This document shows, one piece after another, positions 16,018 through 55,041 of a stretch of DNA of 64,000 nucleotides. The DNA lies in contig OZ240251.1 in assembly GCA_965198285.1 (NCBI GenBank), positions 3,445,752 to 3,509,751 on the forward strand, given 5' to 3'. Both the position numbers and the translations under genes were made by a program. The stretch is from Chloroflexota bacterium (GTDB lineage: Bacteria > Chloroflexota > UBA11872). The notes under the pieces were generated by a model. It made no database searches, was not told the origin of the DNA, and was given only the letters and a program-made list of their open reading frames with translations. Each line of letters opens with the position of its first letter. The first letter of the stretch is position 1.

Positions 16018-16108
16018 GGCGCGATCCTCCCTGCCTGAAGCCTCAAGCGACGATACGACACCAGCCCACCATGCGTAGACTGTCGCGCTTCCCCGACGGC
16101 AGAACCCC

Positions 16109-17254
16109 ATGGTCGCACTCGCGCTTTCCACCCGCGATCCGGCAACGGCGATTGGCCAGCCGGTCGACGTTTTGGACACGCCGGCATTGGTCCTGGACCT
16201 CAGAGTCGTAGAGGCCAACATCGCCCGCACGGTCGAGATCGCCCAGGCCGCCGGCGCCCGGCTGCGGCCGCACATCAAGACCCACCGAATGCTCGCGGTG
16301 GCCCAACGCCAGATCGAGGCTGGCGCACAGGGCATCTGTTGCGCCAAGACCGGTGAGGCCGAGGTCTTCGCCGACGGCGGTGTCGATGACATCTTCATCG
16401 CCAACCAGGTCGTCGGCGCGGCCAAGATGCGGCGGCTACGAGCGCTCGCCGAGCGCGTCCGGCTCGCCGTGGGCGTCGATCACCCTGAGCAGATCGACTT
16501 GCTCAGCCAGGCATTTCGCGGGGCTGATCCCCTCGACATCAGCATCGAGATCGATGTAGGCCAGCGCCGTACCGGGGTGGTGGAAGACCATGAGGCCGTC
16601 GACCTGGCCCAGCGGATCCTGGATTCGCCGGGGCTCGCCTTGCGGGGCGTCTACACCCACGAAGGCCACGATTACGCGGCGCGGGATGATTCGGACCTGG
16701 CCGTGATCGCGGACCAGGCTCAACGCCAGATGCTGGATGCGGCGCAGGCCATCCGAGACGCCACAGGGGCAGCCTGCGAGGTGAGCATGGGATCGACGCC
16801 GTCGCTGTTCGCACGCAAGTTCCATGCGGGCATCGATGAACTGCGGCCGGGTACCGCCGTCTTCAACGACGGCTCGCACGCCAACTTCCTGGGCCACACC
16901 GACTGGTGTGCGGCCACCGTGCTGGCCACCGTGGTCAACCGGCCCGCGCCCGACCGGGTGGTGGTGGACGCCGGCGCCAAGGCTCTGACCTCCGATCGTC
17001 GTGGGCCCAGCATTCTGGAAAACAGCGGCTTCGGGATGGTCGTGGGCCGCCCCGAGGCCACCATCGTGAGTCTGTCCGACGAGCACGGCGTGCTTTCGGT
17101 GCCGGACGCCGATGCCTATGCCATCGGCGAGGTAATTCAGATCATCCCCAACCACATCTGCCCCTGCGTGAATCTGTACGACCATGCCTTCGTTGCGCGT
17201 GACGGAATCGTGCGGGAAGTGTGGGAAGTCTCGGCACGCGGGCAGAGTCAGTAG
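16109..17254 (+). CDS. alanine-racemase-fold PLP enzyme (DSD1 / D-serine or D-threo-3-hydroxyaspartate dehydratase-like)
   Basis: 381 aa. The PLP lysine context LRPHIKTHRM and the C-terminal beta-domain are present. It is divergent from the aldehyde dehydrogenase. Confidence 0.6.
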   Translation: MVALALSTRDPATAIGQPVDVLDTPALVLDLRVVEANIARTVEIAQAAGARLRPHIKTHRMLAVAQRQIEAGAQGICCAKTGEAEVFADGGVDDIFIANQVVGAAKMRRLRALAERVRLAVGVDHPEQIDLLSQAFRGADPLDISIEIDVGQRRTGVVEDHEAVDLAQRILDSPGLALRGVYTHEGHDYAARDDSDLAVIADQAQRQMLDAAQAIRDATGAACEVSMGSTPSLFARKFHAGIDELRPGTAVFNDGSHANFLGHTDWCAATVLATVVNRPAPDRVVVDAGAKALTSDRRGPSILENSGFGMVVGRPEATIVSLSDEHGVLSVPDADAYAIGEVIQIIPNHICPCVNLYDHAFVARDGIVREVWEVSARGQSQ

Positions 17255-17288
17255 CCAACGCCACTCGCCCGAAGGGAACTCGAGAGTC

Positions 17289-18056
17289 ATGGGAGCTCTT
17301 GACGGTCAAGCCGCCTTGGTCACCGGCGGCGGCAGCGGGATCGGCCGGGCGGCCGCCTTGGCGCTGGCGGGCGATGGCGCCGCGGTAGCCCTGGTCGGGC
17401 GGCGGCTCGCGCTCCTGGAAGAATCCGCCGGGATGATCAAGACGGCCAGAGGCCGCGTCCTGGTTCTGCCGGCCGACGTCGCCGATGCCGACGCGGTCCG
17501 TGAGGCCGTAGCCCAGACCGAAGCCGATTTCGGCCGTCTCGACATCCTGGTCAACAACGCCGGCGCTAACACCGCGTCGCGCAGCGTGGGCACAACCAGC
17601 GCCGACGACATCGAAACGCTGATGCGGATAAACGTGACCGGGCCCCTCACCCTGTCCCAGGCCGCGTTGCCGGGAATGCTGGAACGCGGCGGTGGGGTGA
17701 TCATCACGGTGGCGTCGTACTCGGTCGTAAGCCCCGGGCCGCCTGGCGGAACGGCCTACAGCGCCTCCAAGGCGGCCGTGGTGAGCCTGATGAAATGCGT
17801 GAACGCCGAGTACCGCAACCGCGGTATCCGGGCTTGCATCATCTACCCCGGCGAGGTGAACACCGAGATGCTGGATGCCCGCCCGCTCGTACCCGACGCC
17901 ACCGCCCGCGCAACCATGAGCCACGCCGACGACCTGGCCCAGATCATCCTGCTCTGCGCCCGCATGCCGGCGCGAACGCTGGTTGAAGAGATCTACGTCC
18001 GCCCGACCCACCTGCGCAACATGCAAGCCGACATCGCAGCCGCGATGGAGTTTTAG
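17289..18056 (+). CDS. short-chain dehydrogenase/reductase (SDR), paralog 1
   Basis: ORF 17184..18056 with start MGALDGQAALVTGGGSGIGRAAA (TGxxxGIG), NNAG, and YSASKAAV (YxxxK). It is about 60% identical to 26491..27258. Confidence 0.75.
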   Translation: MGALDGQAALVTGGGSGIGRAAALALAGDGAAVALVGRRLALLEESAGMIKTARGRVLVLPADVADADAVREAVAQTEADFGRLDILVNNAGANTASRSVGTTSADDIETLMRINVTGPLTLSQAALPGMLERGGGVIITVASYSVVSPGPPGGTAYSASKAAVVSLMKCVNAEYRNRGIRACIIYPGEVNTEMLDARPLVPDATARATMSHADDLAQIILLCARMPARTLVEEIYVRPTHLRNMQADIAAAMEF

Positions 18057-18217
18057 CCGACGTCCAAACCTCTCAGCCGCAGCTGGCGCGAAGCTCCGGT
18101 CGTGGGTGAGCTTGCGTCGCGGGCGGCGCGCCGCGGCAGCGTAACGGGCGGTTGGGGGGATTGGATGGGGCTGAGGGCGTGTGCCGGGCGGCGGGATTTG
18201 GGTGGGGGTGAAGGGGG

Positions 18218-18286
18218 AGCTATCTCTCGCCAGCCGGCCCCCAGAGGGGGCCGGCTGGCGAGAGATAGCTTGGGCCGGATTTTTTT
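18218..18286 (+). terminator. 25-bp perfect inverted repeat followed by T7 run (possible intrinsic terminator for the SDR gene, or a structural repeat)
   Basis: AGCTATCTCTCGCCAGCCGGCCCCC-AGA-GGGGGCCGGCTGGCGAGAGATAGCT then TGGGCCGGATTTTTTT. The stem is unusually long, and the T-run is 9 nt from the stem, so this is not canonical. Confidence 0.35.
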
Positions 18287-18369
18287 GGCGGGTTGGCGAC
18301 GAAGGTTGGGGCTGTGAGGGGGCGGCAGGGCGGCGCTGGAAGGGCTGGGTGCGCGGACGTGGCGAGGGG

Positions 18370-18432
18370 GTGGGGTGGGGGCGTCGCGAGCGGAAGAGGC
18401 CGGTTTCAAACCGGCCCCTACGAAAGATGGGG
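18370..18432. repeat. flank repeat block A (left copy); right copy at 26049..26113
   Basis: GTGGGGTGGGGGCGTCGCGAGCGGAAGAGGCCGGTTTCAAACCGGCCCCTACGAAAGATGGGG compared with GTGGGGGGTGTTGGGCTGCGACCGGAAGAGGCCGGTTTGAAACCGGCCCGTACGAAAGAGGGGG. Both contain a GGCCGGTTT-N-AAACCGGCC hairpin. Confidence 0.6.
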
Positions 18433-18624
18433 AACAAGCGGGGGCCAGGCGTCAGGAAGGTGAGTAGGCGGATTAGGGGGGCGAGCATGGAGGGTCCGGG
18501 GGAGGGACTTGGGAAAGGGCGTCTCTAGTGTACACTGCATGGATACGAAGAGCAAGGGTGATAAGGGTAGTGAGTCATTTTGATGTCTCCATGCGGCCTG
18601 GTTGGGGGACAGACCTCGACCGGA

Positions 18625-19050
18625 GGACCCCTCACCGAATTCCGCCGGGGACGGCGGAGTCTGCCTCTCCCCTCGGAGAGGGTGAAGAGCCGGGCAGCGA
18701 CTGAGGAGCGTGGGGTGCGCTGGAGTTGGTTGCCCGGGGGACCCCTCACCGATTTCGGCCGAAGACGCCCGAATCTGCCTCTCCCCTTGGAGAGGGTGAA
18801 GAGCCGGGCAGCGACTGAGGAGCGTGGGGTGCGCTGGAGTTGGTTGCCCGGGGGGACCCCTCACCGAATTCCGCCGGGGACGGCGGAGTCTGCCTCTCCC
18901 CTCGGAGAGGGTGAAGATTGGGAGCCGCCACGTAGGACCGTGGTGGGTGCTCGGACGAGCCCTCACCGATTTCCGCCGAAGACGGCGGAATCCTTCGGCT
19001 AGCTCAGGACGGGTTCTGCCTCTCCCCCAGGCGAGGGGAGGATTGGCGGG
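18625..19050. repeat. ~114-bp tandem repeat, 3.8 copies, each unit carrying two hairpins (REP/MITE-like family)
   Basis: The unit is GGACCCCTCACCGAATTCCGCCGGGGACGGCGGAGTCTGCCTCTCCCCTCGGAGAGGGTGAAGAGCCGGGCAGCGACTGAGGAGCGTGGGGTGCGCTGGAGTTGGTTGCCCGGG. The hairpins are TTCCGCCG-NNNN-CGGCGGAA and CCTCTCC-CCTC-GGAGAGG. Related copies lie at 58.23 kb and 61.87 kb. Confidence 0.7.
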
Positions 19051-19127
19051 ATGTGGTTCGACTCGGGCCCATTCGACAGGCTCAGGGCAGGTTCTTCGAC
19101 GGACTCTGGCCCGGCTGACCATGAACG
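19048..19127. repeat. flank repeat block B (left copy); right copy at 26199..26255
   Basis: GGGATGTGGTTCGACTCGGGCC ... GGACTCTGGCCCGGCT(G/C)ACCATGAACGG is shared. The left copy has a 30-bp insertion between the two halves. Confidence 0.55.
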
Positions 19128-19329
19128 GTGGATGCGAGTACGTGGGCTCGGGTTGGTGGGGAGGTCGGGGTGACACTGGTGCGCTGGGATTGTTGGGTGC
19201 TGCTGGGTCCCGGCTGGGGACGCCGGGATGACGGGGGAAGTGCGCTCGGGATGCGGGCGTGGACGGGATGTGAGGTTGCGCTGGGTTTGATCATGGTGCT
19301 GGGTCCCGGCTGAAGACGCCGGGATGACG

Positions 19330-19455
19330 GGATGTGTTCAGTCGGTCGGGCCAATGTGTTCAGTTTTGGGGCGACTGTGTTCAGTTTTTGGCCCGATGTG
19401 TTCACTCTCCGGCCGAATGTGTTCACTTTGGCGAGGCAGGTGTTCAGTTTTCGGT
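19330..19455. repeat. iteron-like array 1: 6 x 21-22 bp direct repeats (consensus GGCCRAATGTGTTCAGTTTTNGG)
   Basis: The units start near 19331, 19354, 19376, 19396, 19417 and 19439. They are contiguous with no spacers, and the array is preceded by GACGCCGGGATGACGGG. Confidence 0.7.
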
Positions 19456-19497
19456 GGCGGGCGTTGGTTGGGGATCGGGGACGGCGGGATGACGGGG

Positions 19498-19615
19498 ATG
19501 TGTCCACTCTGTCAGGCCAATGTGTCCAGTTTTTGGCCCGATGTGTCAACTTTTCGGGCGAATGTGTCCAGTTTTTGCCGAAATGTGTCCAGTTTCCGGC
19601 CGAATGTGTGCGGTG
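19498..19615. repeat. iteron-like array 2: 6 x 21-22 bp direct repeats (variant core ATGTGTCCAGTTTT)
   Basis: The units start near 19499, 19519, 19541, 19562, 19584 and 19604. The array is preceded by GACGGCGGGATGACGGGG, so the two arrays form a higher-order duplication of about 170 bp. Confidence 0.7.
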
Positions 19616-20151
19616 AGGAAGGGAAGAGGGGAGAGCGGAGAGTAGCGAGAGGGGACAAATAGGGGACTGCCTGTGCGGGCTGGGTGCTTCGGGTGTGGTT
19701 CGACAGGCTCACCAGGGACGCAGGGTGCGCTGGGATCGATCATGGCGGTGGGTTCCCCTCCTTCGGCTAGCTCAGGACAGGCTTCGACAAGCTCAGGGAA
19801 GGCTCTCCAGGGACGCCGGGATGACGAGCGTGGTGGCAAGTGGTTGGTGGGTGGTGGGGAGTGGCTTGTGCCGAGGTCGGTTGTTGGGCTGCTGGAGTTT
19901 TGGGGCGAACCGGGGAACGGGGATGCCGGCAATGACATCACTGCCAGCAACGCGATCAGTGCGTGCGGTGCTGGCAGTGCAGGCAACGCTGGCAGGGATT
20001 CCGGAGTCGGAGAGGCAGAGGCGGACAGGGACATGTCTTAGGCGAATGTCCGAAGCAGCATGTGGTTCAATGGCTGGGGCGTACTGTCGGCATTCCCAGG
20101 TCACAGGGTCCGCGCAGCCTGGGCCATCGTGCAGGAGTCGTGTGGGACAAT

Positions 20152-20166
20152 CGTGTGCTAAGCACA
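20152..20166. promoter_or_regulatory. 15-bp palindrome GTGTGCT-A-AGCACAC 23 nt upstream of the 20189 start (candidate operator)
   Basis: Perfect 7-bp arms, with a direct repeat TCGTGTG just upstream. Confidence 0.3.
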
Positions 20167-20188
20167 CCGCGCCTAATCTCTAGGGATA

Positions 20189-21799
20189 TTGCCTGAGACT
20201 ATGGTCATTAACGATCTAAACGCACTCCTGCAAGCTAAAACTAAGATTGAAAACCTCCTCGAGAATGGTGATACGACTGAGGCTTTTGATTTTGCAGACA
20301 ATCTTTGCGCAGGATCGGGCCAAGAGTCCCTTGTGAGAAACCTGCGTGCATGCACATACGCTGACGTAGGCGAACAGAACAATCAGATCTCTCTAATCGA
20401 AGAGGCAATTCGCATTTGGCGTTCGGCCGGGGAAGAAATCACAACTCGCGAGTCGTACAACTTGGCAAGCTCTATGTTGAGCATTTGGAGTCTCTATGAA
20501 GGGCAACACGGATTTGCCGATACTTGGCTGGAACAACGCGACTATCTGCGCGATTCTAGGAAGATATTCTCAGAAATCGCTAACGACGAGGGAGCTGAAA
20601 CAGAATTCCGGTTAAAGGCGCTAACTGACGCTGGAAACTCTTACGACAATGTCGGACGGCACACGGACGCCATCGATTGCTTCGATCGTGCACTCGCGCT
20701 CGACTCTTCATTTGCAATGGCGACGGGCAATCGCGGCCTGGCCCTCCTCTACGCATCGCCTTACATGAGGGATTTTGAGCGTGAGATTGAGCTACTCGCG
20801 GCAGCAGACCTTGATCACGCGATAAGTAATTCGGAAAGCGTGCTAAAGCATGGCGGAGAGTCGGCGCTAGAGAGCTTTCGCCGGCAGCGCTCTGCAATAC
20901 CTGACTTGCCGAGTGCATCTGATGAATCTGAACCGATGCCACCTAGGTTTACCGATCCTCATTTGACCTGGTGCCTGCGCGAAGGGCTCTTTCTGCACGT
21001 AGCGCCGTGGCTGGTGGGTAGCAATGCGTCGGTTCTCGACCCAATTTTCTTCAGGCGCATAATAACGAGTCTCGGCGCAAGGGACATAACCCTCACCAAT
21101 GAGATCATTGACGCATTTAATACGATTAAGCAGGACTTTGTGTCGGCTCGCTATTTGGTGTGGGCATCGAGTGAGCCTAGCAGTCCAATCTGGACGCATG
21201 CTCAGTCGATCAGCTCGCACGTATCATTTTTGGATACTCTCGATTACGGCAGGTGGGGCGTTCGAACTGGTACTGCAATTCAGGCATTCAAGGCGGCTGT
21301 AGATGTTCTGGATAAGAGTGCGTCCTTTGCACACTTGTACTTCGGCACCAAACAGGCAGCTCGTCGTGTATCGTTTCGTAGCCTACCTTACGAGGACAGC
21401 GCACGTCGAAACGTTGCGGCAGCGTTTGAGAGTGCTTTGAACGGAAAGTCGCCTAACCGAGGGTTGTCGGCCTTAATGGATCTGAGCTACGAACTTGATG
21501 ACGAGGGATCATCGCCTCTAGCACTTAATGTAAACATGCGACACGCTGCCACGCATCGGTTCTTGACTGTTCATTCTGAGATGGCTCCGGAATCGTCGGA
21601 CTGGAGTGAGCGAATCAACTGGCGAGATCTCATCGACGAGTCTTTGTGTCAATTACGACTTGCGAGGTCTGCAATATTCTATTTAGCGCAGATGATTGAC
21701 ATGCAAGAGGATGTCAAGATTGCTACGGAAGCTGGAATGTCGGTGACCATGGCGCTGCCATATGCAAGGCTAGACACTGACTTGCTGGAGGCCGAATAG
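20189..21799 (+). CDS. TPR-repeat protein with C-terminal HEPN-like R-x4-H motif (candidate LA2681-type HEPN RNase / Abi-like protein)
   Basis: 536 aa. The N-terminal two-thirds holds several TPR-like helical pairs (for example AIDCFDRALALDSSFAMATGNRGLAL). At the C-terminus ...ALNVNMRHAATHRFLTVH... gives R-x4-H, the HEPN catalytic signature, in a predicted all-helical region. GC is about 45-50% against ~68% for the flanks, and there is a clean ATG with no overlap. Confidence 0.45.
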   Translation: MPETMVINDLNALLQAKTKIENLLENGDTTEAFDFADNLCAGSGQESLVRNLRACTYADVGEQNNQISLIEEAIRIWRSAGEEITTRESYNLASSMLSIWSLYEGQHGFADTWLEQRDYLRDSRKIFSEIANDEGAETEFRLKALTDAGNSYDNVGRHTDAIDCFDRALALDSSFAMATGNRGLALLYASPYMRDFEREIELLAAADLDHAISNSESVLKHGGESALESFRRQRSAIPDLPSASDESEPMPPRFTDPHLTWCLREGLFLHVAPWLVGSNASVLDPIFFRRIITSLGARDITLTNEIIDAFNTIKQDFVSARYLVWASSEPSSPIWTHAQSISSHVSFLDTLDYGRWGVRTGTAIQAFKAAVDVLDKSASFAHLYFGTKQAARRVSFRSLPYEDSARRNVAAAFESALNGKSPNRGLSALMDLSYELDDEGSSPLALNVNMRHAATHRFLTVHSEMAPESSDWSERINWRDLIDESLCQLRLARSAIFYLAQMIDMQEDVKIATEAGMSVTMALPYARLDTDLLEAE

Positions 21800-21840
21800 G
21801 CACCTGACTGTCGTCGTAGCACGGGCTGCTAGGACGCGAA

Positions 21841-21981
21841 GGTCTCGGGTTTGGCATTAGTGGCGGCTTGTGGTGGTTCCGAAGAGGATGATTCGCTTGG
21901 GTTTGAAGCGGTCGTGGATGAGTTGGGTGATGGCTTGGTTGGTTTCGCGGTTGAGAGGCTCTTCGACAACGCGAATTGGGG
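21841..21981 (-). pseudogene. possible remnant of a minimal nucleotidyltransferase (MNT/pol-beta NTase) N-terminus
   Basis: Minus-strand frame gives ...PIRVVEEPLNRETNQAITQLIHDRFKPKRIILFGTTTSRH(stop). The h-x-x-L-x...K-R-I-I-L-F-G segment resembles the helix plus hG[GS] start of MNT antitoxins, but it stops before the catalytic D.D. It has no start codon and overlaps the restriction-modification gene stop. Confidence 0.2.
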
Positions 21982-24900
21982 CTAGACGGCCACCTGGGCT
22001 TCGGTGTCGCCGGCGGTGAGGGCGTTCATGTAGGCGAGGATTAGGGCTTTGGTGCGGTAGTGGTTGAAGGCGGCTTGGTCCTGGCGTTGGATGATGGGGA
22101 AGGTGGAGAGGATGTAGGCCGCGTCTTCGCGGGTGAGGCCGTAGAGGTGGAAGTAGAGGGCGTCGAGGCGGGCTCGGAGGTGGCGACGTTCTTCGGGGTC
22201 CCAGGGGAAGGGTGGGCCGTGGTGGCCTAGGTCGCGGGCGAAGGGGGCCATGTCGTGGGCGGTGTAGGTGAGGCGGAGGACGTGGTGGTGGACGAGGTCG
22301 GCGGCGGTGCGGTCGCCGAAGCGGCGGTGATAGGTGGCTGGAGGAAGGACCGGGAGTTGCTCGACGGTGTACCAGGTCAAATGCTGACCCTGGACTTTCT
22401 GGCGGGCAACGAAGTCGAACGCGAACGAGTTCAGGGAGGCGAGCCAGAAGCAGGCATTTTCCTTATAAGTGGCGACGTCAGCGTCGGGCATCAGCAGCGG
22501 CAGTGTGTGACCGGCGCCTACGCGCGGAATGATTGAGGCGATGACTGCCCGGACATTCGTTGGCGAAGTTACGTCCTTGAACGCCACTGCCCAACTCAAT
22601 TCATCGGGCCACTTGATGTCTTGCTCACTAACCCAGAACTGAGGAGTCGGTAGCCAATATGGATCGCCGTGCTCTTCGGCTGTGGCCGGTCTTGGCTGGG
22701 CGGGTCGGTGGAGATTCTTCCGGTTGACAACCACGCTGGCGGCGCGGTGGTCAAACGCCTGTGTCATTTTCCCCTCATAGAGAGGGACGTAATGATCAGC
22801 GCCACGCTTCCAACGATTGGCTTGGACGGGGTAGAAGCCCTCTTCCTGCAGTTCGGACGTGGTTCGGAAAAGGTGAGATGAATTGGCCATGTCCAGCATG
22901 CGGACGTAGCGGACGGGCCAAGCGCGGCGTTCGTCGTCGCCTGAACGGTCCACCAGGACAGGATGGTCCTGGTAGATACGGCGAGTGATGTCGGCGTCGC
23001 GGCGGGTGCGGAAGACGGGGGCGGTGCCGGTGTTGGGGTTGACGCGGGCGAAGTCGTCGGGGCTGAGGGTAAAGGCTCGGTCAGGGTCGGTGATGGTGGT
23101 GTCAGGCAGGAAGAAGCCGCAGCGGGTCTCGGGGAACGTGCGCCCGGGTCCGCCGATGATGAGGGCGCAGAACTTGAAGCGGGAGTCGATGTCGGGGAAG
23201 AAAGGCGGCAATTCGGTTCCGAGGCGACGGTTTTCGAAGTCAAAGATTCCGGCGACGCGGCCGGTGGTGGAGACGGACTGGAAGAAGCGGGCGGCGGTGC
23301 GGTCGGCGTAGATGCCGGAGGGGGTGAGCAGGCCGACGAGGCCGTTGGGTTTGACGAGGCGCAGGGAGCGTTCGACAAAGAGGGAGTAGAGGTTGATGTC
23401 GCCACCGCCCAACAACGGGTAGTGGCCGGAGGCGCGGATGACCTGGCCGAGGCGGTCGGCGCGGGCCTTGGCCTTGTCGAAGGCCACGGCCAATGGAGCG
23501 CCATGTTCGCGCAGGCGCTTGATGCCTTCGTGGCGGGCGGCGGCAGTGGCGGCACGGGCGAGATCTGGGTCCCTGGTGGCAAACCACTCGACTTCCTGGA
23601 GCTTGATGCGGTCCCAAGGGGGATTGCCGATGACAGCGTCGAAGCCGCCCTCGGGGGTTTGGTTTTGCCAGTGACGCCAGACGCCGGGGAAGGCGGCTTC
23701 CCAGTGGAGGAAGGATTCCTGGTCGGCTACAGAGTGGGCCTCGGCCAGGCGCTCGCGAAAAGCGGTTGAACGATTGTGCGCTCGGTCGCCCGGCGGACGC
23801 GCCAACTGCTCGTAAGCGCGGCTGGCGTCGGCCCCCAGCGTCTCGGCTATTGGCGCTTCGAATACGGCACGCTGGCGGACCTTGAGGCCGGCGGTGAGCC
23901 AGCGGAGGCCGGTGAGGGTGTCGAGGAAGCTGCGGAGGTCGGCAGTGGCGGACTCGACGGCCTGGAAGAGCGACTGGGACTGGTGGACTTCCGACACGTC
24001 GGCATCGGAGAGCTGTTCGATCCGGCGCATGCCCTGGGCGGCGTTCTCGATGCCTTGCAGCGCGCTGGACACGAACATGGGCACGTCCAGCCGCTGCAAG
24101 TCCGCCGTGGCGTCGGCGCTGTGCAGCCCCAGCAACGAATCTCCGCAGCGTAAATGGTGATCCAAGAACGATAGGGGCGCGCCGACCGTGAAGCTATGGA
24201 GCCAGAGGGAGACCTTTGCAAGTTCGACGGTGAGCGAGTTCTTGTCCACCCCGTAGATGCAGCGCTTGAGCACCAAGCGGCGGATGATGGCCTGGTCGCT
24301 CAACTGGGTCTCGTAGACCTTCCAGCCGGACGCGTGAGCGCGATGCAGGATGTCAGAGCGAATGGCGGCGATACGGTCAAGCAAGGGCGAGTGGTAAGGG
24401 TCGTCTTCGGGCAGCCAGTCGGGGATGGCGGGGACGAACTCAATCAGGTCGGCGACATAGTCGGTCAGGAAATCAACGGCGGTGACTAGGAAATGGCCGC
24501 TGCCCATCGCCGGGTCCAGCACCTTGAGATCGAGCACGGCCTGGGCGGGGTCCAGGCGGGCTAGCTCGGCGCGGCGCTCGGCTTTGGGGCGGCGGTCGCC
24601 CTTCAATTCCTTGGCCCGGGCCTCGAAGGCGTCCAGGCGTTCCTCGATGAGCGGCTTGAGGGTCTGGTCGACTATGAGGTCCACGAGATCCTGCGGGGTG
24701 TAGAAGCTGCCGCTGTCCTTGCGGGCGTAGGGGTTGGGGCGGACCGTCACCGCCCCCTGAGCGTCCAGCACCGGTTCCTGTTCCAGCAGACGTTCGTAGA
24801 TGGATCCGAGTTGCTGGACGGACATGTCGCGGTAGTTGACGTAGCGGCGCTGGCCGTCGGTTTGGGTGTGGCTGAGGTCGTAGATGATGTCGGCGATGAC

Positions 24901-26004
24901 GTTGTCAGAGACGCGGACCCTGCCAAGAAGTTTGGAGGCGTCCTCGGCAAACAGGCCGCCGTTGTAGGGCGGCAGGCCGACGTCCGGATCTCCCTGATCA
25001 ATCTGCCGGAAGAGTTCCTTCAGGTGATTCCAGTAGCTGGCAGCTGTGTCCGAGAAGGTGTCGTTGCGGGCTTTGCGCTCGGCTACGTCGTCGCGTACAC
25101 GCTTGCGGAGGCCGTAGTCGTCGTAGGCGGCGTCGTTAACGGGCAGGAGGCCGCGGTCTTCGGCGTAGAGGACGAAGAGCAGGCGGTAGAGAAAGATGAG
25201 GGCGGCTTCGCGGATTGCGGGCATGGGCCGGTCGGTGGCATCGGCCAGGGCCTGGAGGAGGCGGGGAAAGACGCGCTGGAAGACGACGCCGGCGAGGCTC
25301 TGGGCGACGCGCTGTTCGTAACGACGGCCCTGGTCTAGAGCGGTCTCCAGGAAGGTGACGGCGGCGCCGGGGCGGCGCAGGAAGGCGGAGCGGCGAAAGA
25401 GAAGGTGGAAGGTGCGGAGGGCGTCCTGGTCGTCGGCTTGGAGGAGGGCCTGGAGGTCGGCTTCGTAGTAGGCGGTGGCGCGGGGGCGAGTTTTCTGGTC
25501 GTAGAGACGCCAGACGGCACCGTTGGTGAGGATCCCCCAGCGGAGGTCGCCGTCGGTGACGGTTTCGGCTTCGCGGAGGTAGCGAAGGATCTGGGCGTGG
25601 GGTGAGGAGGCCTGGAGTCCCTTGCCGGAGCCGCGGGTGTCGAGGGGACGACGGAAGCGTTTGAGCTCGGCGACGGCGAGGGCTTCGAGGAATGAGCTGG
25701 CGTTGGAACCGGTGGCGCGGGTCTTGGCCTGGGCGTCGGGGAAGAGGAGCAGGTCGGGGATATTTTCGCCGCCGCTGGTCGTCTGCTGGGAGAGGTCGTC
25801 GGTCCAGCCGAGGAGTTGGAGCAGGGGACGAATGAGGTCCTGCTCGGTCTGAGTCTCGTTGGGGTTGTGGGCGGTGGGGAAGTCCTGGAAGAGGCGGCGG
25901 GCTTCGTCACGGAAGGTGTTGTAGGCGCGGCGCTGGGTTTGGCGCTCGGGGGTTTGGCGGATGCCGTCGGTGAGGAAGTACTGGGTGAATAGGTGGCCGG
26001 GCAT
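21982..26004 (-). CDS. Type IIG (MmeI-like) restriction-modification enzyme: PD-ExK nuclease + gamma-class N6-adenine methyltransferase + target-recognition region
   Basis: 1340 aa. The N-terminus ENIPDLLLFPD...LAVAELKRF resembles the MmeI-family D...ExK nuclease core. Motif I is VLDPAMGSGHFLV (about aa 515) and motif IV is GNPPW (about aa 790), in gamma order. A C-terminal ~550 aa region ends with an Eco57I/MmeI-like tail (YVPLYEGKM.QAFDHR ... LYGL...YIL.TFPI). No separate methylase gene is nearby. Confidence 0.7.
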   Translation of the reverse strand: MPGHLFTQYFLTDGIRQTPERQTQRRAYNTFRDEARRLFQDFPTAHNPNETQTEQDLIRPLLQLLGWTDDLSQQTTSGGENIPDLLLFPDAQAKTRATGSNASSFLEALAVAELKRFRRPLDTRGSGKGLQASSPHAQILRYLREAETVTDGDLRWGILTNGAVWRLYDQKTRPRATAYYEADLQALLQADDQDALRTFHLLFRRSAFLRRPGAAVTFLETALDQGRRYEQRVAQSLAGVVFQRVFPRLLQALADATDRPMPAIREAALIFLYRLLFVLYAEDRGLLPVNDAAYDDYGLRKRVRDDVAERKARNDTFSDTAASYWNHLKELFRQIDQGDPDVGLPPYNGGLFAEDASKLLGRVRVSDNVIADIIYDLSHTQTDGQRRYVNYRDMSVQQLGSIYERLLEQEPVLDAQGAVTVRPNPYARKDSGSFYTPQDLVDLIVDQTLKPLIEERLDAFEARAKELKGDRRPKAERRAELARLDPAQAVLDLKVLDPAMGSGHFLVTAVDFLTDYVADLIEFVPAIPDWLPEDDPYHSPLLDRIAAIRSDILHRAHASGWKVYETQLSDQAIIRRLVLKRCIYGVDKNSLTVELAKVSLWLHSFTVGAPLSFLDHHLRCGDSLLGLHSADATADLQRLDVPMFVSSALQGIENAAQGMRRIEQLSDADVSEVHQSQSLFQAVESATADLRSFLDTLTGLRWLTAGLKVRQRAVFEAPIAETLGADASRAYEQLARPPGDRAHNRSTAFRERLAEAHSVADQESFLHWEAAFPGVWRHWQNQTPEGGFDAVIGNPPWDRIKLQEVEWFATRDPDLARAATAAARHEGIKRLREHGAPLAVAFDKAKARADRLGQVIRASGHYPLLGGGDINLYSLFVERSLRLVKPNGLVGLLTPSGIYADRTAARFFQSVSTTGRVAGIFDFENRRLGTELPPFFPDIDSRFKFCALIIGGPGRTFPETRCGFFLPDTTITDPDRAFTLSPDDFARVNPNTGTAPVFRTRRDADITRRIYQDHPVLVDRSGDDERRAWPVRYVRMLDMANSSHLFRTTSELQEEGFYPVQANRWKRGADHYVPLYEGKMTQAFDHRAASVVVNRKNLHRPAQPRPATAEEHGDPYWLPTPQFWVSEQDIKWPDELSWAVAFKDVTSPTNVRAVIASIIPRVGAGHTLPLLMPDADVATYKENACFWLASLNSFAFDFVARQKVQGQHLTWYTVEQLPVLPPATYHRRFGDRTAADLVHHHVLRLTYTAHDMAPFARDLGHHGPPFPWDPEERRHLRARLDALYFHLYGLTREDAAYILSTFPIIQRQDQAAFNHYRTKALILAYMNALTAGDTEAQVAV

Positions 26005-26490
26005 TAGAGAAGGACGTTTTCGGTACGGGGAAGCATCGCATGTTTGGGGGTGGGGGGTGTTGGGCTGCGACCGGAAGAGGCCGGTTTGAAACCGGCCCGT
26101 ACGAAAGAGGGGGCGGGGACGGCGGGGGCGTCACGACCGGAAGGTGGGGGGCGGGTTCTCCGAGGGACGCCGGGGCGGCTCACCACGAACGGGGGGCTGG
26201 GGATGTGGTTCGACTCGGGCCGCCGAGGGACTCTGGCCCGGCTCACCATGAACGGATAGAGAAGACGGGCGGGTCGGGGGCAACGGCCCTGCGAAGGGCA
26301 GGACGGGAGGGCGCGGGGTGGGGCAAAGCGTCTGGATTGACCGAAGCGCCGTGGGCCGTAGATGACATGATGGGTGTGGTCGAGTCACGCAGAGATACGG
26401 TGAGCGACGTCGGGACGGGGCGGACGGGTCGCCGTAACTCAATGTGACCCAATACTGAGAATCCAGCAGCCGCGAAGGGCAGGTGCGCCG

Positions 26491-27258
26491 ATGAAACAGC
26501 TGAATGGTCAAGTCGCGTTGGTGACCGGCGCCGGAACCGGTATCGGTCGCGCCAGCGCAATTGCGCTGGCCCGCGAAGGAGCGGCGGTGACGCTGGTTGG
26601 GCGGCGTCAGTCCTTGCTCGATGAGACTGCGGCCACGATTCGAGGTGCGGGCGGCACGGCGCTGGCTCTCCCGGCCGACATCACCGATCCCGAAGCCGCG
26701 CGGGCCGTGGTGGCGAAAACCGAGTCCGAGTTCGGGCGTCTGGACGTCCTGGTTAACAACGCCGGCGGCGGCAGCCGGTCACGCAGCGTGCGAACGATCG
26801 AAGCAGACGATTTCGAGGGCGTGCAGCGGCTGAACGTGACGGCCCCGATGGTGCTCACGCAGGCGGCGCTGCCGGGGATGCTGGACCGTGGGACCGGCAC
26901 CGTCATCACCATTTCGTCGTACGCCGCCGTCACTGCCGGCCCGATGGCCGGCGTGGCCTATGGCGCCGCGAAGGCGGCCGTGGCGAGCGTGATGAAGAGC
27001 GTCAACAACGAACTCCGCAGCCACGGCCTGCGGGCCTGCACGATTTTCCCGGGCGAAGTGGACACCCCGATCCTGGAACGCCGCAAGCTGGTCCCGGACG
27101 CTGCGGCGCGCGCCACGATGATGCAGTCCGAAGACCTGGCCGAAATCGTCCGCCTCTGCGCCTGCCTGCCCGGCCGCACGCTGATTGAAGAGGTCTACGT
27201 GCGACCGACCCACCTGCGCGACCTGAGCGCCGACACCGAGGCGGCGCTAGAGACCTAG
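26491..27258 (+). CDS. short-chain dehydrogenase/reductase (SDR), paralog 2
   Basis: 255 aa. It has TGAGTGIGRA, NNAG, and YGAAKAAV, and is collinear with SDR paralog 1 over its full length. Confidence 0.75.
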   Translation: MKQLNGQVALVTGAGTGIGRASAIALAREGAAVTLVGRRQSLLDETAATIRGAGGTALALPADITDPEAARAVVAKTESEFGRLDVLVNNAGGGSRSRSVRTIEADDFEGVQRLNVTAPMVLTQAALPGMLDRGTGTVITISSYAAVTAGPMAGVAYGAAKAAVASVMKSVNNELRSHGLRACTIFPGEVDTPILERRKLVPDAAARATMMQSEDLAEIVRLCACLPGRTLIEEVYVRPTHLRDLSADTEAALET

Positions 27259-28004
27259 CGCCCGACCTTCCCCAGGAAGTCCTTCGCGCCCTCGGCTATC
27301 CAGGCGTTCAGTCCGGTCGTCACGAAGCCGACGCCCATGTCAACGTAGCGTTCAACGTTGGCGGAGGTGACCAGCGTTCCGGCGTGGCGGCCTGAGGCCA
27401 CGATGGTTGCCAGCGCCTGGTCGATCACTGCCTGCACCTCGGGGTGCGTGGAGTCCATGTGACCGAGGCTTTGCCCCAGGTCGCCGGGCGCGACGTAGAA
27501 GATGTCCACGCCTTCGACTTGAAGGATCTCGTCCAGGTTGTTCACGGCCAGGATGTCCTCGATCAGGATGATCGCCAGGCACTCGTCGTTGGCCCGCTCC
27601 AGGAAGTCCGAGACCCCGTAACCCTGGCGGGAGGTCATCATGCCCCGTTTACCGATCGGAAAGAATTTTGACGCGTCGGCTACCGCCTGGGCCTGGTCGC
27701 GTGTGTCCACGTGCGGCACGCAGACGCCTTGAGCGCCGAGGTCCAGCACGCGGTAGATGGGCCCGTAGCGATTCTCGTTGACGCGCACGATGGAGGTCAT
27801 GCCCCAGAGGTCGGCAGCGCGACTCATGTCGGGGATGTCCCGGTAGTCCAGCGGTCCGTGCTCGCCTTCCAGCCACACGGAGTCGAACCCCAGCGGCCCC
27901 AGCCACTCGATGAGGTCCGCCGTCATCCCGGTGCCCATCACACCCGTAGCCAGTTCACCGGCGGCCAGTTTGTGCTTCACTCGGTTCGGTCGCATTGAAG
28001 GCAT
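27255..28004 (-). CDS. HpcH/HpaI-family aldolase, paralog 2
   Basis: 249 aa. The block GELATGVMGTGMTADLIEWLGPLGFDSVWLEGEHG matches the HpcH/HpaI N-terminus. It is convergent with SDR paralog 2, with a 4-nt overlap. Confidence 0.6.
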   Translation of the reverse strand: MPSMRPNRVKHKLAAGELATGVMGTGMTADLIEWLGPLGFDSVWLEGEHGPLDYRDIPDMSRAADLWGMTSIVRVNENRYGPIYRVLDLGAQGVCVPHVDTRDQAQAVADASKFFPIGKRGMMTSRQGYGVSDFLERANDECLAIILIEDILAVNNLDEILQVEGVDIFYVAPGDLGQSLGHMDSTHPEVQAVIDQALATIVASGRHAGTLVTSANVERYVDMGVGFVTTGLNAWIAEGAKDFLGKVGR

Positions 28005-28144
28005 TTGTCGAGTCCAATGTCAGCGCACGCGCGCAGTGTGACCGACCGCTCCGCAACCTGCCAGCCAGACACGACTCAAACGGCCCCAACGACAGCCGGC
28101 CGAATGGCGTAGGCTCACGCGCTCACGTCCCTTCGGTGACCGCC

Positions 28145-54934: not shown

Positions 54935-55017
54935 GGTTGGGGTTCCTTGGCGGGGTGTTGCCGCACTATGGCGGGGCGGGGTTTCGGAGTCAATCGGCGA
55001 GCGGTTTGTGCGCACGT

Positions 55018-55041
55018 AAGAGTTTTTTCCAAAAAACTCTT
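55018..55041. promoter_or_regulatory. perfect 24-bp AT-rich palindrome about 85 nt upstream of the AKR start (candidate operator)
   Basis: AAGAGTTTTTT-CC-AAAAAACTCTT. It sits in an otherwise G-rich, roughly 70% GC region. Confidence 0.35.

Follow-up and report, generated by a model that had tools for sequence, protein, structure and literature searches.

A Putative Defence Island Bounded by Repeat-Rich Non-Coding Arms in Sponge-Associated Chloroflexota

Introduction

Defence hotspots that lie between conserved core genes are familiar from several bacteria, including the integration hotspots of E. coli and the core defence hotspots of Pseudomonas aeruginosa. Arrays of iterons are known from plasmid and phage origins, and also from centromere-like sites such as parC of plasmid R1. 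HEPN RNases, in turn, have been found coupled to restriction-modification (RM) systems, PrrC-EcoprrI among others (Anantharaman et al. 2013, PMC3710099). The same work put forward the idea of a multi-pronged defence, with the RNase acting as a back-up of the RM system (PMC3710099).

The stretch of DNA analysed here, 64 kb long and referred to below as the window (mean GC, 65%), carries one copy of a family of islands built as arm, cargo, and arm, without a recombinase gene, in sponge-associated Chloroflexota. The cargo comprises a TPR-HEPN (LA2681) gene that is convergent with a 1340-aa Type IIG RM gene, with a nucleotidyltransferase relic between the two. An earlier note on this DNA had listed the flanking genes, two repeat blocks (A and B), tandem hairpins, iterons, the cargo genes, and the gene fragment, and all of them were recovered at or near the places it had assigned them.

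Insertion at the SDR Site

The island sits between two SDR paralogs on the plus strand, SDR1 (17184..18056; adh_short E=1.3e-51) and SDR2 (26491..27258; adh_short E=5e-50), both of which lie outside the insert. They are part of a row of catabolic genes, with an ALDH gene and a BhcC-like gene to the left of the insert and an HpcH aldolase gene and a sulfatase gene to the right, and SDR1 is syntenic throughout the close relatives, with synteny seen for SDR2 too. Related genomes were compared as 21-kb pieces (denoted by L numbers). Four of these (L001, L013, L014, and L016) have empty sites, with only 70-150 bp from the SDR1 stop to the SDR2 start, and in the more distant outgroups L019-L021 (flank gene, 71-72%) the BhcC-SDR-HpcH row is compact. 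Measured against the empty sites, some 8.35 kb of the window (~18112-26461) is inserted DNA, and the SDR1-SDR2 segment is thus an insertion into an otherwise 70-bp spacer, much as the earlier note had proposed.

Alignment to the empty spacer of L014, which reads GGCGTGGAAAC up to the junction and CCAGCAGCCGCGAAAGG after it, places the boundaries at 18112..26461, give or take 10 nt. The left junction of the window runs from GGCGCGAAG into CTCCGGTCGTGGGTGAGC, and the right from CTGAGAAT into CCAGCAGCCGCGAAGGG; the junction alignment revealed no target-site duplication. Among the relatives the left junction takes three forms, all at the SDR site. The insert is strongly G-rich on the plus strand, with a GC skew of +0.24 where its flanks have -0.07 and +0.01. 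The region yielded neither a recombinase nor a transposase, in keeping with the earlier note, and the ORFs of its non-coding zones have no Pfam match; nor does the SDR site have a tRNA or other usual integration target.

The locus is also highly polymorphic among close relatives, in line with the island reading of the earlier note. Several have the same left arm with different cargo or none: another Eco57I/MmeI-type (Type IIG) gene and low-GC ORFs in L002, an Ig-like protein in L008, and ankyrin and LRR proteins in L034. L011 carries DUF1697 and HAD genes and lacks the signature motifs of the left arm, and in L015 and L004 the arm stands alone. Since the arm is missing from the empty sites, it must itself be inserted DNA.

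One could suppose instead that the region is ancestral and that the compact sites of relatives are deletions. Palindromes and repeats are indeed deletion-prone, as seen in the clean loss of the H stem (see below) from L119, and the three left-junction variants would suit such a history. Nevertheless, this is unlikely and the least credible of the readings considered here: the more distant L019-L021 are compact, the cargo has a foreign composition, close relatives have completely different cargo, and the arm-HEPN-RM unit is found at other loci as well.

The Left Arm

The left arm is 2.0 kb of G-rich, non-coding DNA, arranged as hairpin H, hairpin A, a promoter-like block (P), REP-like blocks, and then one or two phased 21-nt iteron arrays. 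Hairpin H (18204..18290) is composed of a conserved lead, GGGGGTGAAGGGGGAGC, a 25-bp stem that is perfectly paired around a loop of 3 nt (18218-18270), and then TTGGGCCGGATTTTTTT. It is the sole long perfect palindrome of the 64-kb window, and its DNA fold has an energy of -38.1 kcal/mol (z = -8.9). The structure is conserved over 12 copies, with compensatory double changes in 8 of the 24 predicted pairs and with 0 broken pairs and 0 G.U pairs in the 21-pair main stem.

Block A (18366..18432, minus strand) is a short hairpin, GGCCGGTTTCAAACCGGCC, with conserved flanks. It is 81% identical to a second copy, A' (26047-26113), and these two are the only matches to its core in the 64-kb window, where 0 are expected. 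As minus-strand RNA, A would form 9 pairs at -13.3 kcal/mol with U.G wobbles; the plus-strand version has 6 pairs at -5.0 kcal/mol.

Block P (18527..18555, minus strand) has a -35 element TTGCTC (18555..18550), a 17-nt spacer, and a -10 element TACACT (18532..18527), and it is oriented outward, facing A, H, and SDR1. Of 15 copies compared, most retain the pattern cTTGCC-N17-TACA(C/A)T, among them copies from other loci (L116, L117, L119, L094, and L016), whereas the spacer sequence is variable. A simple promoter consensus scan did not return P, and so its identification rests on conservation rather than on a strong consensus match. Judged from these motifs, P is a putative σ70-like promoter from which transcription may proceed.

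Several REP-like repeats follow. A 114-nt two-hairpin unit (families D3, D5, and D6) is present in 3.5 tandem copies on the plus strand (18613..19040), with 2.6 copies at 18620-18917 (TRF score 524) and a diverged fourth unit extending to ~19040. The unit is dispersed at other intergenic sites (L004, L008, L032, L117, and L119), and its scores against whalefall-1, 16.7-24 bits, are below threshold (gathering score 37). Block B (19048..19128, plus strand; GTGGTTCGAC ... GGCTSACCATGAACGG) and its right-hand counterpart B' (26199-26255) align around an internal indel of 24 nt; over the 32 nt at the 3' end they are 94% identical. Block B is also found at unrelated intergenic sites and even within an RM gene, with dispersed copies at L016 ~14034-14135, L119 9095-9446, L116 18830, and L118 12369-12434. 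Two "g" hairpin repeats (19198..19331, plus strand; GGTCCCGGC..GACGCCGGGATGACGGG; family D7) come next, with further copies at 19459-19496 and ~19800-19826; the repeat has 6 matches in the window vs 0.74 expected. Elsewhere in the window, positions 54940-55720 form a cargo-free intergenic region composed of an AAGAG hairpin, g, a P-like block, and a B-like REP.

Iteron array 1 (19332..19458, plus strand) contains six 21-nt units with the core ATGTGTTCAGTTT, and array 2 (19498..19618, plus strand) contains five to six 21-nt units with the core ATGTGTCCAGTTT. The period of 21 was recovered at 19332-19454 and 19498-19609, and the core has 11 matches in the window vs 0.14 expected. Across 96 units from 13 arm copies the core ATGTGTYCA is near-invariant, a result partly imposed by the search pattern, and T-rich positions downstream of it are likewise conserved; the period is 21. 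The iterons are confined to arms. Between them and the cargo is a conserved block directly 5' of the HEPN gene (19910..20188, plus strand), with an imperfect inverted repeat at 19924-19994. This block accompanies the HEPN gene elsewhere (L116 from 9728 and L117 from 9580) and is partly present in L032, L011, L002, and L034.

Cargo Genes

The first cargo gene (20201..21799, plus strand) encodes a TPR and HEPN (LA2681 family) protein of 532 aa when read from the ATG (MVINDL). The protein matches HEPN_LA2681 at E=3e-30 (105 bits; cut-off 27), a search with its TPR region hits consensus-TPR structures (E=1e-15), and its Rx4H motif (R447/H452) is invariant in 17 homologues. An identical entry, P0121, is on record.

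The second (21982..26004, minus strand) encodes the 1340-aa Eco57I/MmeI-like Type IIG enzyme. Its assignment as an RM gene, already made in the earlier note, is supported by profile matches to Eco57I (3.4e-19), N6_Mtase, and, weakly, MmeI_hel, and in PADLOC by REase_MTase_IIG (1e-67) and a partial DrmMI match. The motifs P83-D84...E113-x-K115, DPAMGSGHF, and NPPW are invariant in 21 homologues. With their catalytic motifs thus preserved, both proteins look functional.

Between these genes is a relic of an NTP_transf_2 gene for a minimal nucleotidyltransferase (21857..21979, minus strand), which retains the N-terminal 34 residues, lacks a start codon, and is cut short by a premature stop. Clearly, the truncated fragment reported earlier is real: L118 has an intact homologue of 121 aa, with a precomputed NTP_transf_2 Pfam match, and the relic shares 68% identity with the N-terminus of that protein (E=9e-16).

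The cargo is compositionally foreign, as had been claimed. The ORF at 20189-21799 is low in GC, at 51.5% vs 65% for the window, rather than the 45-50% first given for it. The RM gene has a GC skew of -0.52 at third codon positions, vs -0.18 to +0.11 in nine other window genes tested.

An HEPN_LA2681 gene lies beside or near an Eco57I/MmeI-type gene in six of the seven contexts examined, down to 41% identity, the neighbour in the seventh being a type I RM system. In four of the six the two genes are convergent and so do not form one operon. A defence function for the cargo may be deduced from homology.

The Right Arm

The right arm consists of A', B', and a block, V, that is found only at the SDR locus. 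A' (26047..26113, minus strand), the second copy of hairpin A, lies 43-110 nt upstream of the RM start codon, and in L117 (16154) and L119 (9907) it again lies by the start of the RM gene. Islands whose cargo differs also have it at their right end (L032, L034, and L011); L032 and L034 have their right-hand 1.7 kb in common. B-type REP copies of family D10 follow on the plus strand (26161..26255), as a partial copy at 26161-26192 and B' at 26199-26255. Block V (26314..26461, plus strand), at the right end, is 71-88% identical in L015, L004, L008, L032, and L034. It is present in all occupied SDR loci, is missing from empty sites and from arm copies elsewhere, and has no match in L116-L119. An alignment read by eye shows a possible 26-codon ORF in V (26367-26447), with the frame retained in five of six loci, including through an in-frame 21-nt deletion common to L032 and L034.

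The direct repeats A/A' and B/B', in equal order on each side of the cargo, had been taken as the footprint of site-specific integration, that is, of a classic island whose integrase was lost and whose attachment site was duplicated. The existence of empty sites and an A/A' pair flanking the RM unit of L119 would also fit. However, compared with the cargo-free arm of L015, the extra DNA of the window spans ~20137-26313; A' and B' therefore lie within the inserted segment, away from its boundaries. Pairing is inconsistent, with A' only in L117 and A only in L116 and in the cargo-free L015 and L004, and in both L032 and L034 the two copies of the hairpin, A and A', have different central bases. 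Adding the dispersed nature of B, the lack of a target-site duplication or of a usual target at the site, and an examination of the SDR-locus islands and of four RM-linked arm loci that detected no integrase or remnant of one, this account is largely refuted and highly improbable. As attachment-site duplications, A and B were rejected: A and A' are internal components of the arms, and B is a dispersed REP-like repeat.

Recurrence and Proposed Mechanism

Complete or partial arm-HEPN-RM units occur at three other chromosomal loci in related genomes. In L117, between a GFO_IDH_MocA gene and a TPP enzyme gene, the window order is kept as H-iterons-HEPN-RM-A'-B, without the left A and with a diverged P. 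L116, located after clpB, has H-A-b-g-iterons-HEPN, then further genes and a shorter 778-aa Eco57I-type gene. L119, between dnaX and an aminotransferase gene, has arms and RM and no HEPN, its H stem being the one cleanly deleted. L116 belongs to the same genome as L002, and L119 to that of L015, so that arms exist at a minimum of two loci per genome. L094 carries a diverged arm after an ABC-transporter gene, and L106 a mini copy. Across the SDR-locus islands and four arm loci linked to RM genes, neither a recombinase nor a transposase was detected. An extended version of the arm (L116, L119, L016, and window position 55011) has an abrupt start at a further hairpin, AAGAGTTTTTT..AAAAAACTCTT, a hint of a discrete end of the element.

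The arm of the window is itself a mosaic, with an outer edge of the SDR-locus type and an interior of the type linked to an RM gene elsewhere. Over positions 18057-18135 the window shares 84-96% identity with the arms of SDR loci and is unrelated to either L116 or L119. From ~18136 to ~18430, in most 40-nt comparison windows, the sequence is nearer to L119 (82-98%) and L116 (72-97%) than to L015 (70-88%).

This mosaic favours cassette exchange between multi-copy arms by homologous recombination, which is overall the best explanation of the defence island and is given about an even chance of being right. The cassette would have arrived with the inner part of its own arm, through recombination between arm copies, and would have replaced the prior content of a pre-existing arm at the SDR site. 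Crossovers may have fallen at ~18.10-18.14 kb on the left and ~26.26-26.31 kb on the right. Once in place, the Type IIG enzyme would methylate self DNA and cut unmodified DNA, and the TPR-HEPN protein, a predicted RNase, could provide a second, abortive or back-up layer. An arm-bounded island family with exchangeable cargo and no recombinase of its own is, then, a better description than the "decayed or mobilised in trans" of the earlier note.

Arm copies are 75-98% identical in patches, which is marginal for efficient homologous recombination, and the stereotyped order, the hairpin at the terminus, and the phasing of the iterons resemble ends recognised by a protein more than they do passive homology. 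It is conceivable that the island is a non-autonomous mobile element, with a recombinase, HUH-type transposase, relaxase, or Rep encoded elsewhere recognising H and/or the iterons and moving arm plus cargo between intergenic sites. The module order is alike in at least six genomic contexts, the perfect palindrome H without G.U pairs fits recognition at the DNA level, and the 21-bp phasing of the iterons (two helical turns) and their near-invariant core resemble protein-binding arrays. Moreover, arm and HEPN/RM cargo co-diverge (~74-85% nucleotide identity), the arm of the window clusters with arms linked to RM genes and not according to locus, and some arm versions have the sharp hairpin start. 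By analogy only, L083, an unrelated contig, has a 21-nt repeat of a similar kind, flanked by a tRNA gene and an Xis-like gene. Yet neither the copies nor the window genes that were tested yielded a candidate protein, and viral contigs gave no matches. Terminal inverted repeats, a target-site duplication, and a conserved target sequence are likewise lacking, both iteron arrays lie on one side in a single orientation, left junctions vary between relatives at the SDR site, and the arms are mosaics of blocks also found separately. Mobilisation in trans is a possible but less probable route than cassette exchange.

A further alternative is that the arms are ordinary lineage-specific intergenic DNA, made of promoter, 5'-UTR, and terminator pieces and REP-like repeats with no role in moving cargo, and that a permissive hotspot was filled by illegitimate recombination with foreign genes, which it tolerates. 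Similar building blocks do occur without cargo at 54940-55720, H, with the T-run behind it, could serve as a transcription terminator for SDR1, and P faces a neighbouring gene in L116, L117, L119, and at 55.3 kb of the window, where it could be that gene's promoter. At the SDR, L094, and L016 sites, however, the gene in front of P is convergent, with its 3' end toward P, and so P cannot be its promoter. The restriction of iterons to arms, the inserted state of the arm, and its joint recurrence with the HEPN-RM cassette at unrelated loci also speak against this alternative, which seems doubtful.

Comparison with Known Systems

Like the coupled HEPN RNases and RM systems, the island sets an HEPN protein with an intact Rx4H motif beside an RM gene, an arrangement that fits the multi-pronged defence idea. 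The difference is in the partner, which here is of the Eco57I/MmeI type in six of seven contexts and convergent in four. The enzyme itself resembles the Type IIG MmeI/Eco57I enzymes in being a single 1340-aa chain with an N-terminal PD..ExK and gamma-class N6-adenine methylase motifs (DPAMGSGHF, then NPPW). As in that group, the C-terminal region is swapped between close homologues, many matches being 78-86% identical over only 55% of the protein. It departs from them in having ~290 residues between motifs I and IV; it is a predicted enzyme, and a relative of solved structure was not detectable by sequence. Although its best PADLOC match is DrmMI of DISARM, the other DISARM genes are all absent.

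Integron cassettes and Xer-dependent dif modules also have exchangeable cargo between short hairpin-forming repeats and a platform with an outward promoter, which is putative here. The island, however, has no IntI gene or attC core motifs, and its large cargo lies for the most part on the opposite strand. In addition, the centre of hairpin A (1-5 nt) is too short for the overlap region of a tyrosine recombinase, and A and A' differ in some genomes.

The iterons share with those of origins and parC the five or six direct repeats of ~21 bp, the phasing at two helical turns, and the frequent pairing of two arrays around a short spacer. In contrast, arm copies have no adjacent rep or par gene, AT-rich unwinding region, or DnaA boxes, and they are chromosomal and occur at several loci.

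Blocks B and g and the 114-nt unit are, like REP/BIME elements and REPINs, short, G+C-rich, hairpin-forming, intergenic, clustered, and of fixed orientation, and one copy is inserted in-frame within a gene. Unlike such elements, the arm has its repeats in a set order together with iterons, a promoter-like block, and a long palindrome that covaries, an arrangement that is not a known feature of REP clusters.

Finally, the SDR site shares with defence hotspots a fixed position between conserved genes, defence or accessory cargo that varies with the strain, and some empty sites. It differs from them in its conserved 1.3-2 kb non-coding arm with hairpin, promoter-like block, and iterons, and that arm, free of mobile-element genes in the examined copies, is itself inserted and recurs elsewhere with the same cargo.

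Flanking genes and a polymorphic insertion site

The two short-chain dehydrogenase paralogues SDR1 (17184–18056, + strand) and SDR2 (26491–27258, +) stand 8.4 kb apart in the window, with an aldehyde dehydrogenase (14527–16425, −) and a BhcC-like aldolase/D-Ser-dehydratase-like gene (16109–17254, +) to the left of SDR1 and an HpcH aldolase (27255–28004, −) and a sulfatase (27995–29608, +) to the right of SDR2. The earlier note had described 18060–26490 as a repeat-bounded insertion carrying restriction-modification (RM) and TPR/HEPN-like genes, and every element it listed was found to be present. The window has a G+C content of 65%, and its nearest relatives are metagenome-assembled Chloroflexota genomes whose isolate names suggest a sponge origin. 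Relatives of a flank gene were taken with 10-kb flanks and the window genes mapped onto them, such that related genomes were seen as 21-kb pieces.

This comparison showed that the region between SDR1 and SDR2 is an insertion and that the SDR site is polymorphic. Empty sites exist: the paralogues are only ~70 bp apart in L001, L013 and L014 and ~150 bp apart in L016 (L-numbers denote loci in related genomes or metagenome contigs), and a compact BhcC–SDR–HpcH row occurs in the more distant relatives L019–L021. Elsewhere the gap measures 1.3 kb (L015), 2.0 kb (L004), 3.7 kb (L032), 5.3 kb (L008), 7.7 kb (L034) or >9 kb (L002), and the window's HEPN and RM genes are absent from all of these. Aligned to the empty site, the window's insert spans ~18112–26461, with no target-site duplication at its junctions. 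Both gap and cargo differ among close relatives, the polymorphism on which the note had staked its proposal. L002 carries a different Eco57I/MmeI-type gene and two low-GC ORFs, L008 an Ig-like protein, L034 ankyrin and LRR proteins, and L011 DUF1697 and HAD, while L015 and L004 hold no convincing gene. The same flanking core genes thus enclose different cargo, or none, as in a variable-cargo hotspot.

Contigs of six short-read assemblies (L003, L005, L006, L007, L009 and L017) end within or just past a palindrome, H, 100–500 bp from SDR1, with L003 and L007 ~340–360 bp beyond. These breaks were probably caused by the perfect 53-nt palindrome together with variable cargo, and islands of this kind would therefore be under-represented in short-read metagenome-assembled genomes.

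The note had also read two repeats, A (18366–18432, with A′ at 26047–26113) and B (19048–19128, with B′ at 26199–26255), as the footprint of site-specific insertion. Both are true direct repeats, and their cores occur at these positions only within the 64 kb. An att duplication nevertheless fails to account for them, because all four copies lie inside the insert and are inconsistently paired, and B is dispersed; the boundaries at ~18112 and ~26461 have no repeat in common. The note was right that the window island lacks an integrase. In fact, no integrase, recombinase or remnant was found there or detected in the related islands examined, and ten further window genes outside the island include no recombinase. 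An integrase-mediated island would explain the empty site, but there are neither an integrase nor boundary repeats, and a tRNA-targeted version failed as well. A transposon or IS element was rejected, there being no transposase, no inverted repeat joining both ends and no target-site duplication. An integron was likewise dismissed, as there is no intI, the hairpins are without GTTRRRY cores and the cargo genes lie on both strands.

Architecture of the non-coding arms

In most occupied SDR loci, the left arm of the insert follows the order SDR1, H, A, P, optional 114-nt REP units, b/B, g (small hairpin repeats) and one or two iteron arrays; L011 is without these signature motifs. In the window, the block after the iterons runs to ~20136 and is followed by the cargo. 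On the right side, A′ (in the window, L011, L032 and L034) and B-type REPs precede block V (26314–26461) and SDR2. The window's extra DNA relative to cargo-free L015 is ~20137–26313, and A′ and B′ therefore fall inside the extra segment.

Three arm elements, H, P and the iterons, show signs of selection. H (18204–18290), with its 25-bp stem, is the sole long perfect palindrome in the window and folds as DNA at −38.1 kcal/mol (z = −8.9). Across 12 copies, compensatory double changes affect 8 of 24 predicted pairs, and the 21 pairs of the main stem include none broken and no G.U; the one odd pair lies in the apical helix, where the alignment is gapped. The absence of G.U from the main stem is consistent with a constraint acting on the DNA itself or on both strands. 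On the + strand, H is followed by a conserved T-run. A second match to the H lead, at 38279, lies within a coding gene and was attributed to chance. At L119 (17308–17325) the stem-loop has been precisely deleted, with lead joined to tail (GGGGGAG/ATAGCTTGGG), which is a typical palindrome deletion.

P (18527–18555, −) is a promoter-like block, cTTGCC-N17-TACA(C/A)T; most of 15 copies preserve its hexamers and the distance between them while the spacer sequence drifts. P faces A and H, with the cargo behind it. It was recognised by cross-copy conservation only, a consensus promoter scan having given nothing useful in the arms. As minus-strand RNA, hairpin A forms 9 pairs (−13.3 kcal/mol), U.G wobbles taking the place of plus-strand C.A mismatches; as plus-strand RNA it forms only 6 (−5.0 kcal/mol). 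This better pairing on the minus strand lends modest support to a P-driven leftward transcript.

The two iteron-like arrays of the note proved to be built of 21-nt units, with 11 core matches in the window against 0.14 expected. Ninety-six units from 13 copies share the period of 21 and a near-invariant core, ATGTGTYCA(G/C)TTT, the first nine bases of which were partly imposed by the search pattern. Each array consists of 4–6 units in phased direct repeat. A repeat peptide was discarded, as the arrays occupy different frames of a 112-aa ORF and vary independently of codon positions. Phased repeats could also mark a replication origin or centromere, but no rep or par gene stands beside any arm copy examined, there is no AT-rich unwinding element and the arm is 65% GC. 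Three scans of viral contigs (iteron pair, H lead, single iteron) returned only chance matches in unrelated low-GC contigs. A metagenome scan for iteron pairs gave 33 loci, among which L094 and L106 alone are real arm copies; L100, for example, is an unrelated low-GC (42%) tandem-repeat contig. Another contig, L083 (225–300), has 3–4 tandem 21-nt repeats (ATGTGTTCACTCTCGGCCGAG) almost identical to one window iteron unit, in unrelated 70%-GC metagenome sequence, part of the resemblance being dictated by the search pattern. These repeats have a tRNA gene on one side and an HTH_17 (Xis-like) gene on the other, with an IS256-type transposase adjacent. L083 was kept as an analogy rather than an arm copy, and the remaining similarity may be chance or a hint of recombination-directionality-factor binding sites.

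A possible 26-codon ORF (MMGVVESRRDTVSDVGTGRTGRRNSM) at 26367–26447 (+) ends 43 nt before the SDR2 start; its frame persists in L015, L008, L032 and L034, the last two sharing an in-frame 21-nt deletion, but not in L004, and it may encode a leader peptide or be coincidental. None of ten ORFs from the non-coding zones matched Pfam, and the long antisense ORFs, which have GC1>GC3, were put down to high G+C. At gathering thresholds, Rfam reported only tRNAs in the whole window; at E≤1, the segment 17900–20300 gave only whalefall-1, below threshold, for the 114-nt repeats and a miRNA match without meaning for H.

Dispersed repeats and recurrence of the arms

The tandem hairpin repeat of the note corresponds to the 114-nt unit. 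Each unit at 18628–19036 (−) scores 16.7–24 bits to whalefall-1, against a gathering score of 37; four such matches are more than a single chance match, though none passes the threshold. The REP-like repeats (B, g and the 114-nt unit) also occur at unrelated intergenic sites in relatives, with copies outside the SDR locus at L004, L008, L016, L032, L116, L117, L118, L119 and window 55.0–55.6 kb. Within the window, REP-like blocks are confined to the arms and one other intergenic region, at 54.9–55.7 kb. In L118 (12242–12485, approximately window RM 23727–23820), a B/g-type REP lies inside the coding sequence of the RM homologue P0006 (1411 aa versus 1340 aa in the window); the reading frame apparently continues through it, in a variable part of the protein.

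The second G-rich intergenic region of the window, 54940–55720, lies between divergent genes and combines an AAGAG hairpin, a g-like hairpin, B-like REPs and a P-like TTGCCA-N17-TACCAT on the minus strand, without H, iterons or cargo. A second conserved hairpin, AAGAGTTTTTT-CN-AAAAAACTCTT, occurs there (55011–55048) and at L016 (13850–13880), L116 (8750–8780), L119 (17545–17575) and L011 (12068–12138), and has no Rfam match. In three of these five loci the hairpin precedes a start codon by 25–110 nt, and in L016 and L011 it is found downstream of a gene's stop. The left arm is extended in L116 and L119, with this hairpin at its outer end; at the SDR locus of L011 it replaces H.

The arms also recur, with or without cargo, at quite different loci. 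At L117, between GFO_IDH_MocA and a TPP enzyme gene, H, iterons, the HEPN upstream block, HEPN (+), RM (−), A′ and b/B stand in the window's order; left A is missing, P has diverged and the RM gene has 84–86% nucleotide identity to that of the window. At L116, after clpB on the same chromosome as L002, H, A, b, g, iterons and HEPN are followed by DUF5677, an Eco57I-type gene shorter than the window RM (778 aa) and other defence genes. L119, between dnaX and an aminotransferase gene on the same chromosome as L015, combines both arms with an RM gene of 80% identity, lacks HEPN and has its H stem cleanly deleted. A diverged arm (H, P, B, iterons) follows an ABC-transporter gene at L094, and a mini arm copy lies between two genes at L106. 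This recurrence means that the arms are multi-copy within a genome and occupy at least six contexts.

From H to P, the window arm is 85% identical to L119 and 80% to L116, against 64–77% for the SDR-locus arms of other genomes. A sliding comparison groups 18057–18135 with the SDR-locus type (84–96% to L015 and L002) and the arm beyond, from ~18136, with the RM-linked type. The window arm is a mosaic, and both arm and arm-plus-cargo unit recur. HEPN/RM pairs at L113–L115 (21516–21599) and L136 (250–2931) were also seen within wider defence or mobile-element neighbourhoods, among RES toxin, Replic_Relax, Cas3, SLFN_AlbA_2, PIN/PhdYeFM and an OLD-like nuclease.

The cargo genes

The island contains only the HEPN gene, the RM gene and one gene relic. 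The low-GC gene of the note is the HEPN gene; its G+C is indeed lower than that of the window, at 51.5% (GC3 0.54) rather than the 45–50% first given. The RM gene (21982–26004, −) has a host-like G+C of 65% and GC3 of 0.82, and a third-position GC skew of −0.52 (C over G), compared with −0.18 to +0.11 in nine other window genes tested. The L002 SDR-site homologue shares this bias in weaker form (−0.26), and the + strand of the whole insert is G-rich (skew +0.24). Composition agrees with a foreign origin of the insert. The truncated nucleotidyltransferase also stands: 21857–21979 (−) shares 68% identity with the N-terminal 34 residues of a relative's intact 121-aa NTP_transf_2 protein, and has lost its start codon and acquired an early stop.

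As first noted, the 1340-aa gene encodes a restriction-modification protein, which matches Eco57I (3.4e-19, 70 bits against a cut-off of 25.3), N6_Mtase (29.5 bits) and the PADLOC REase_MTase_IIG profile (1.1e-67). Motifs I (DPAMGSGHF) and IV (NPPW) are invariant in 21 homologues, and with its fused organisation and N6-adenine methylase features the protein is predicted to be an Eco57I/MmeI-like Type IIG enzyme. P83-D84...E113-x-K115 is likewise invariant in the 21 homologues; MmeI_hel reached 23 bits, below its cut-off, and there was no domain-level nuclease match. Searches of PDB sequences with the protein and with a 21-sequence profile found no solved structure. Many homologues are 78–86% identical over only 55% of the query, as expected for swapped target-recognition domains, and the nucleotide match to L113, L117 and L119 is broken at 22420–22740; the modular target-recognition domain thus varies among close relatives. 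As seen with P0008 and at L116, genomes of the clade have several Type IIG paralogues (two in the source genome and at least two in those of L002 and L015), with one protein half common and the other different. The homologue search returned the identical proteins P0001 and P0121 and many relatives, and exact-protein look-up of the window RM, the 536-aa HEPN ORF and P0008 gave no record.

Two larger defence systems were considered for the RM gene. DISARM is suggested by DrmMI, the best PADLOC match (9e-95), but this covers only profile positions 535–878 of 1347, and drmA, drmB, drmC and drmD/E are lacking. For BREX, NCBIfam PglX models score 18–36 bits against cut-offs of 400–900, with no pglZ, brxC or other partner genes. 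Given the absent partners and low BREX model scores, RM belongs to neither.

The HEPN protein matches PF18733, the LA2681 family of the HEPN superfamily (E=3.1e-30, 105.5 bits against 27), over profile positions 8–202 of 204. Its Rx4-6H motif reads RHAATH, with R447 and H452 unchanged throughout 17 homologues, the most distant of them 34% identical. In the TPR region, TPR_1 scores 25.9 bits, just under the cut-off of 27.8, and consensus-TPR structures are matched by residues 144–197 (E=1e-15). Anantharaman et al., in their survey of HEPN proteins, list many HEPN–RM links and, for LA2681, only a TPR fusion and TPR operons (PMC3710099); that TPR fusion is present here. Of the seven contexts examined, six (window, L113, L116, L117, L135 and L136) have an Eco57I/MmeI-type gene next to HEPN_LA2681 or close by, with homologues down to 41% identity, and in the seventh, L137, it adjoins a type I system. 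This pairing makes the LA2681 HEPN protein and Eco57I/MmeI-type enzyme a candidate two-component defence system. The predicted RM enzyme would restrict unmodified DNA, with the putative HEPN RNase serving as a back-up layer.

Possible origin and movement of the arm–cargo unit

Considering the mosaic arm, we propose that the SDR site already held an arm, into which the defence cassette came with the inner portion of its own arm, most likely through homologous recombination between arm copies. The main alternative is movement of arm–cargo units in trans by a protein that is encoded elsewhere and has H and/or the iterons as its recognition sites. The stereotyped order, DNA-level palindrome and phased iterons speak for it; it is opposed by the lack of a candidate gene, terminal repeats, a target-site duplication or a constant junction. 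H probably terminates SDR1 transcription and stops antisense transcripts that leave the cargo, and V probably provides a start region for SDR2 itself.

In its broadest form, the reading is a tentative one that we hold to be rather unlikely as a whole: the arms might be a previously undescribed non-autonomous platform in uncultivated sponge-symbiont Chloroflexota, capturing cargo and shuttling it between loci without an element-encoded recombinase. Such a platform would comprise a covarying terminal palindrome, an outward promoter whose minus-strand transcript, running from P through A to H, would be structured, and phased 21-nt iterons serving as binding sites for a trans-acting protein, and its cargo would include the conserved TPR-HEPN and Type IIG pair and eukaryote-like ankyrin/LRR proteins.

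Sponge symbionts are rich in restriction-modification systems and eukaryote-like proteins, and to our knowledge the movement of such genes in uncultivated lineages is poorly understood. The SDR site offers a testable case, being empty, arm-only or filled with one of at least five different cargos, and the same non-coding module and cargo unit can be followed at other loci. Should the arms promote cargo exchange, they would be a means of locating variable islands in these genomes and could help identify the protein acting on them. The HEPN and Type IIG pair is worth testing as a defence system. Variable-cargo hotspots, Type IIG enzymes and HEPN–RM coupling are already known; what is unusual here is a conserved non-coding arm that recurs with cargo at several loci without any recombinase gene, and the repeated pairing of an LA2681 HEPN protein with a Type IIG enzyme.
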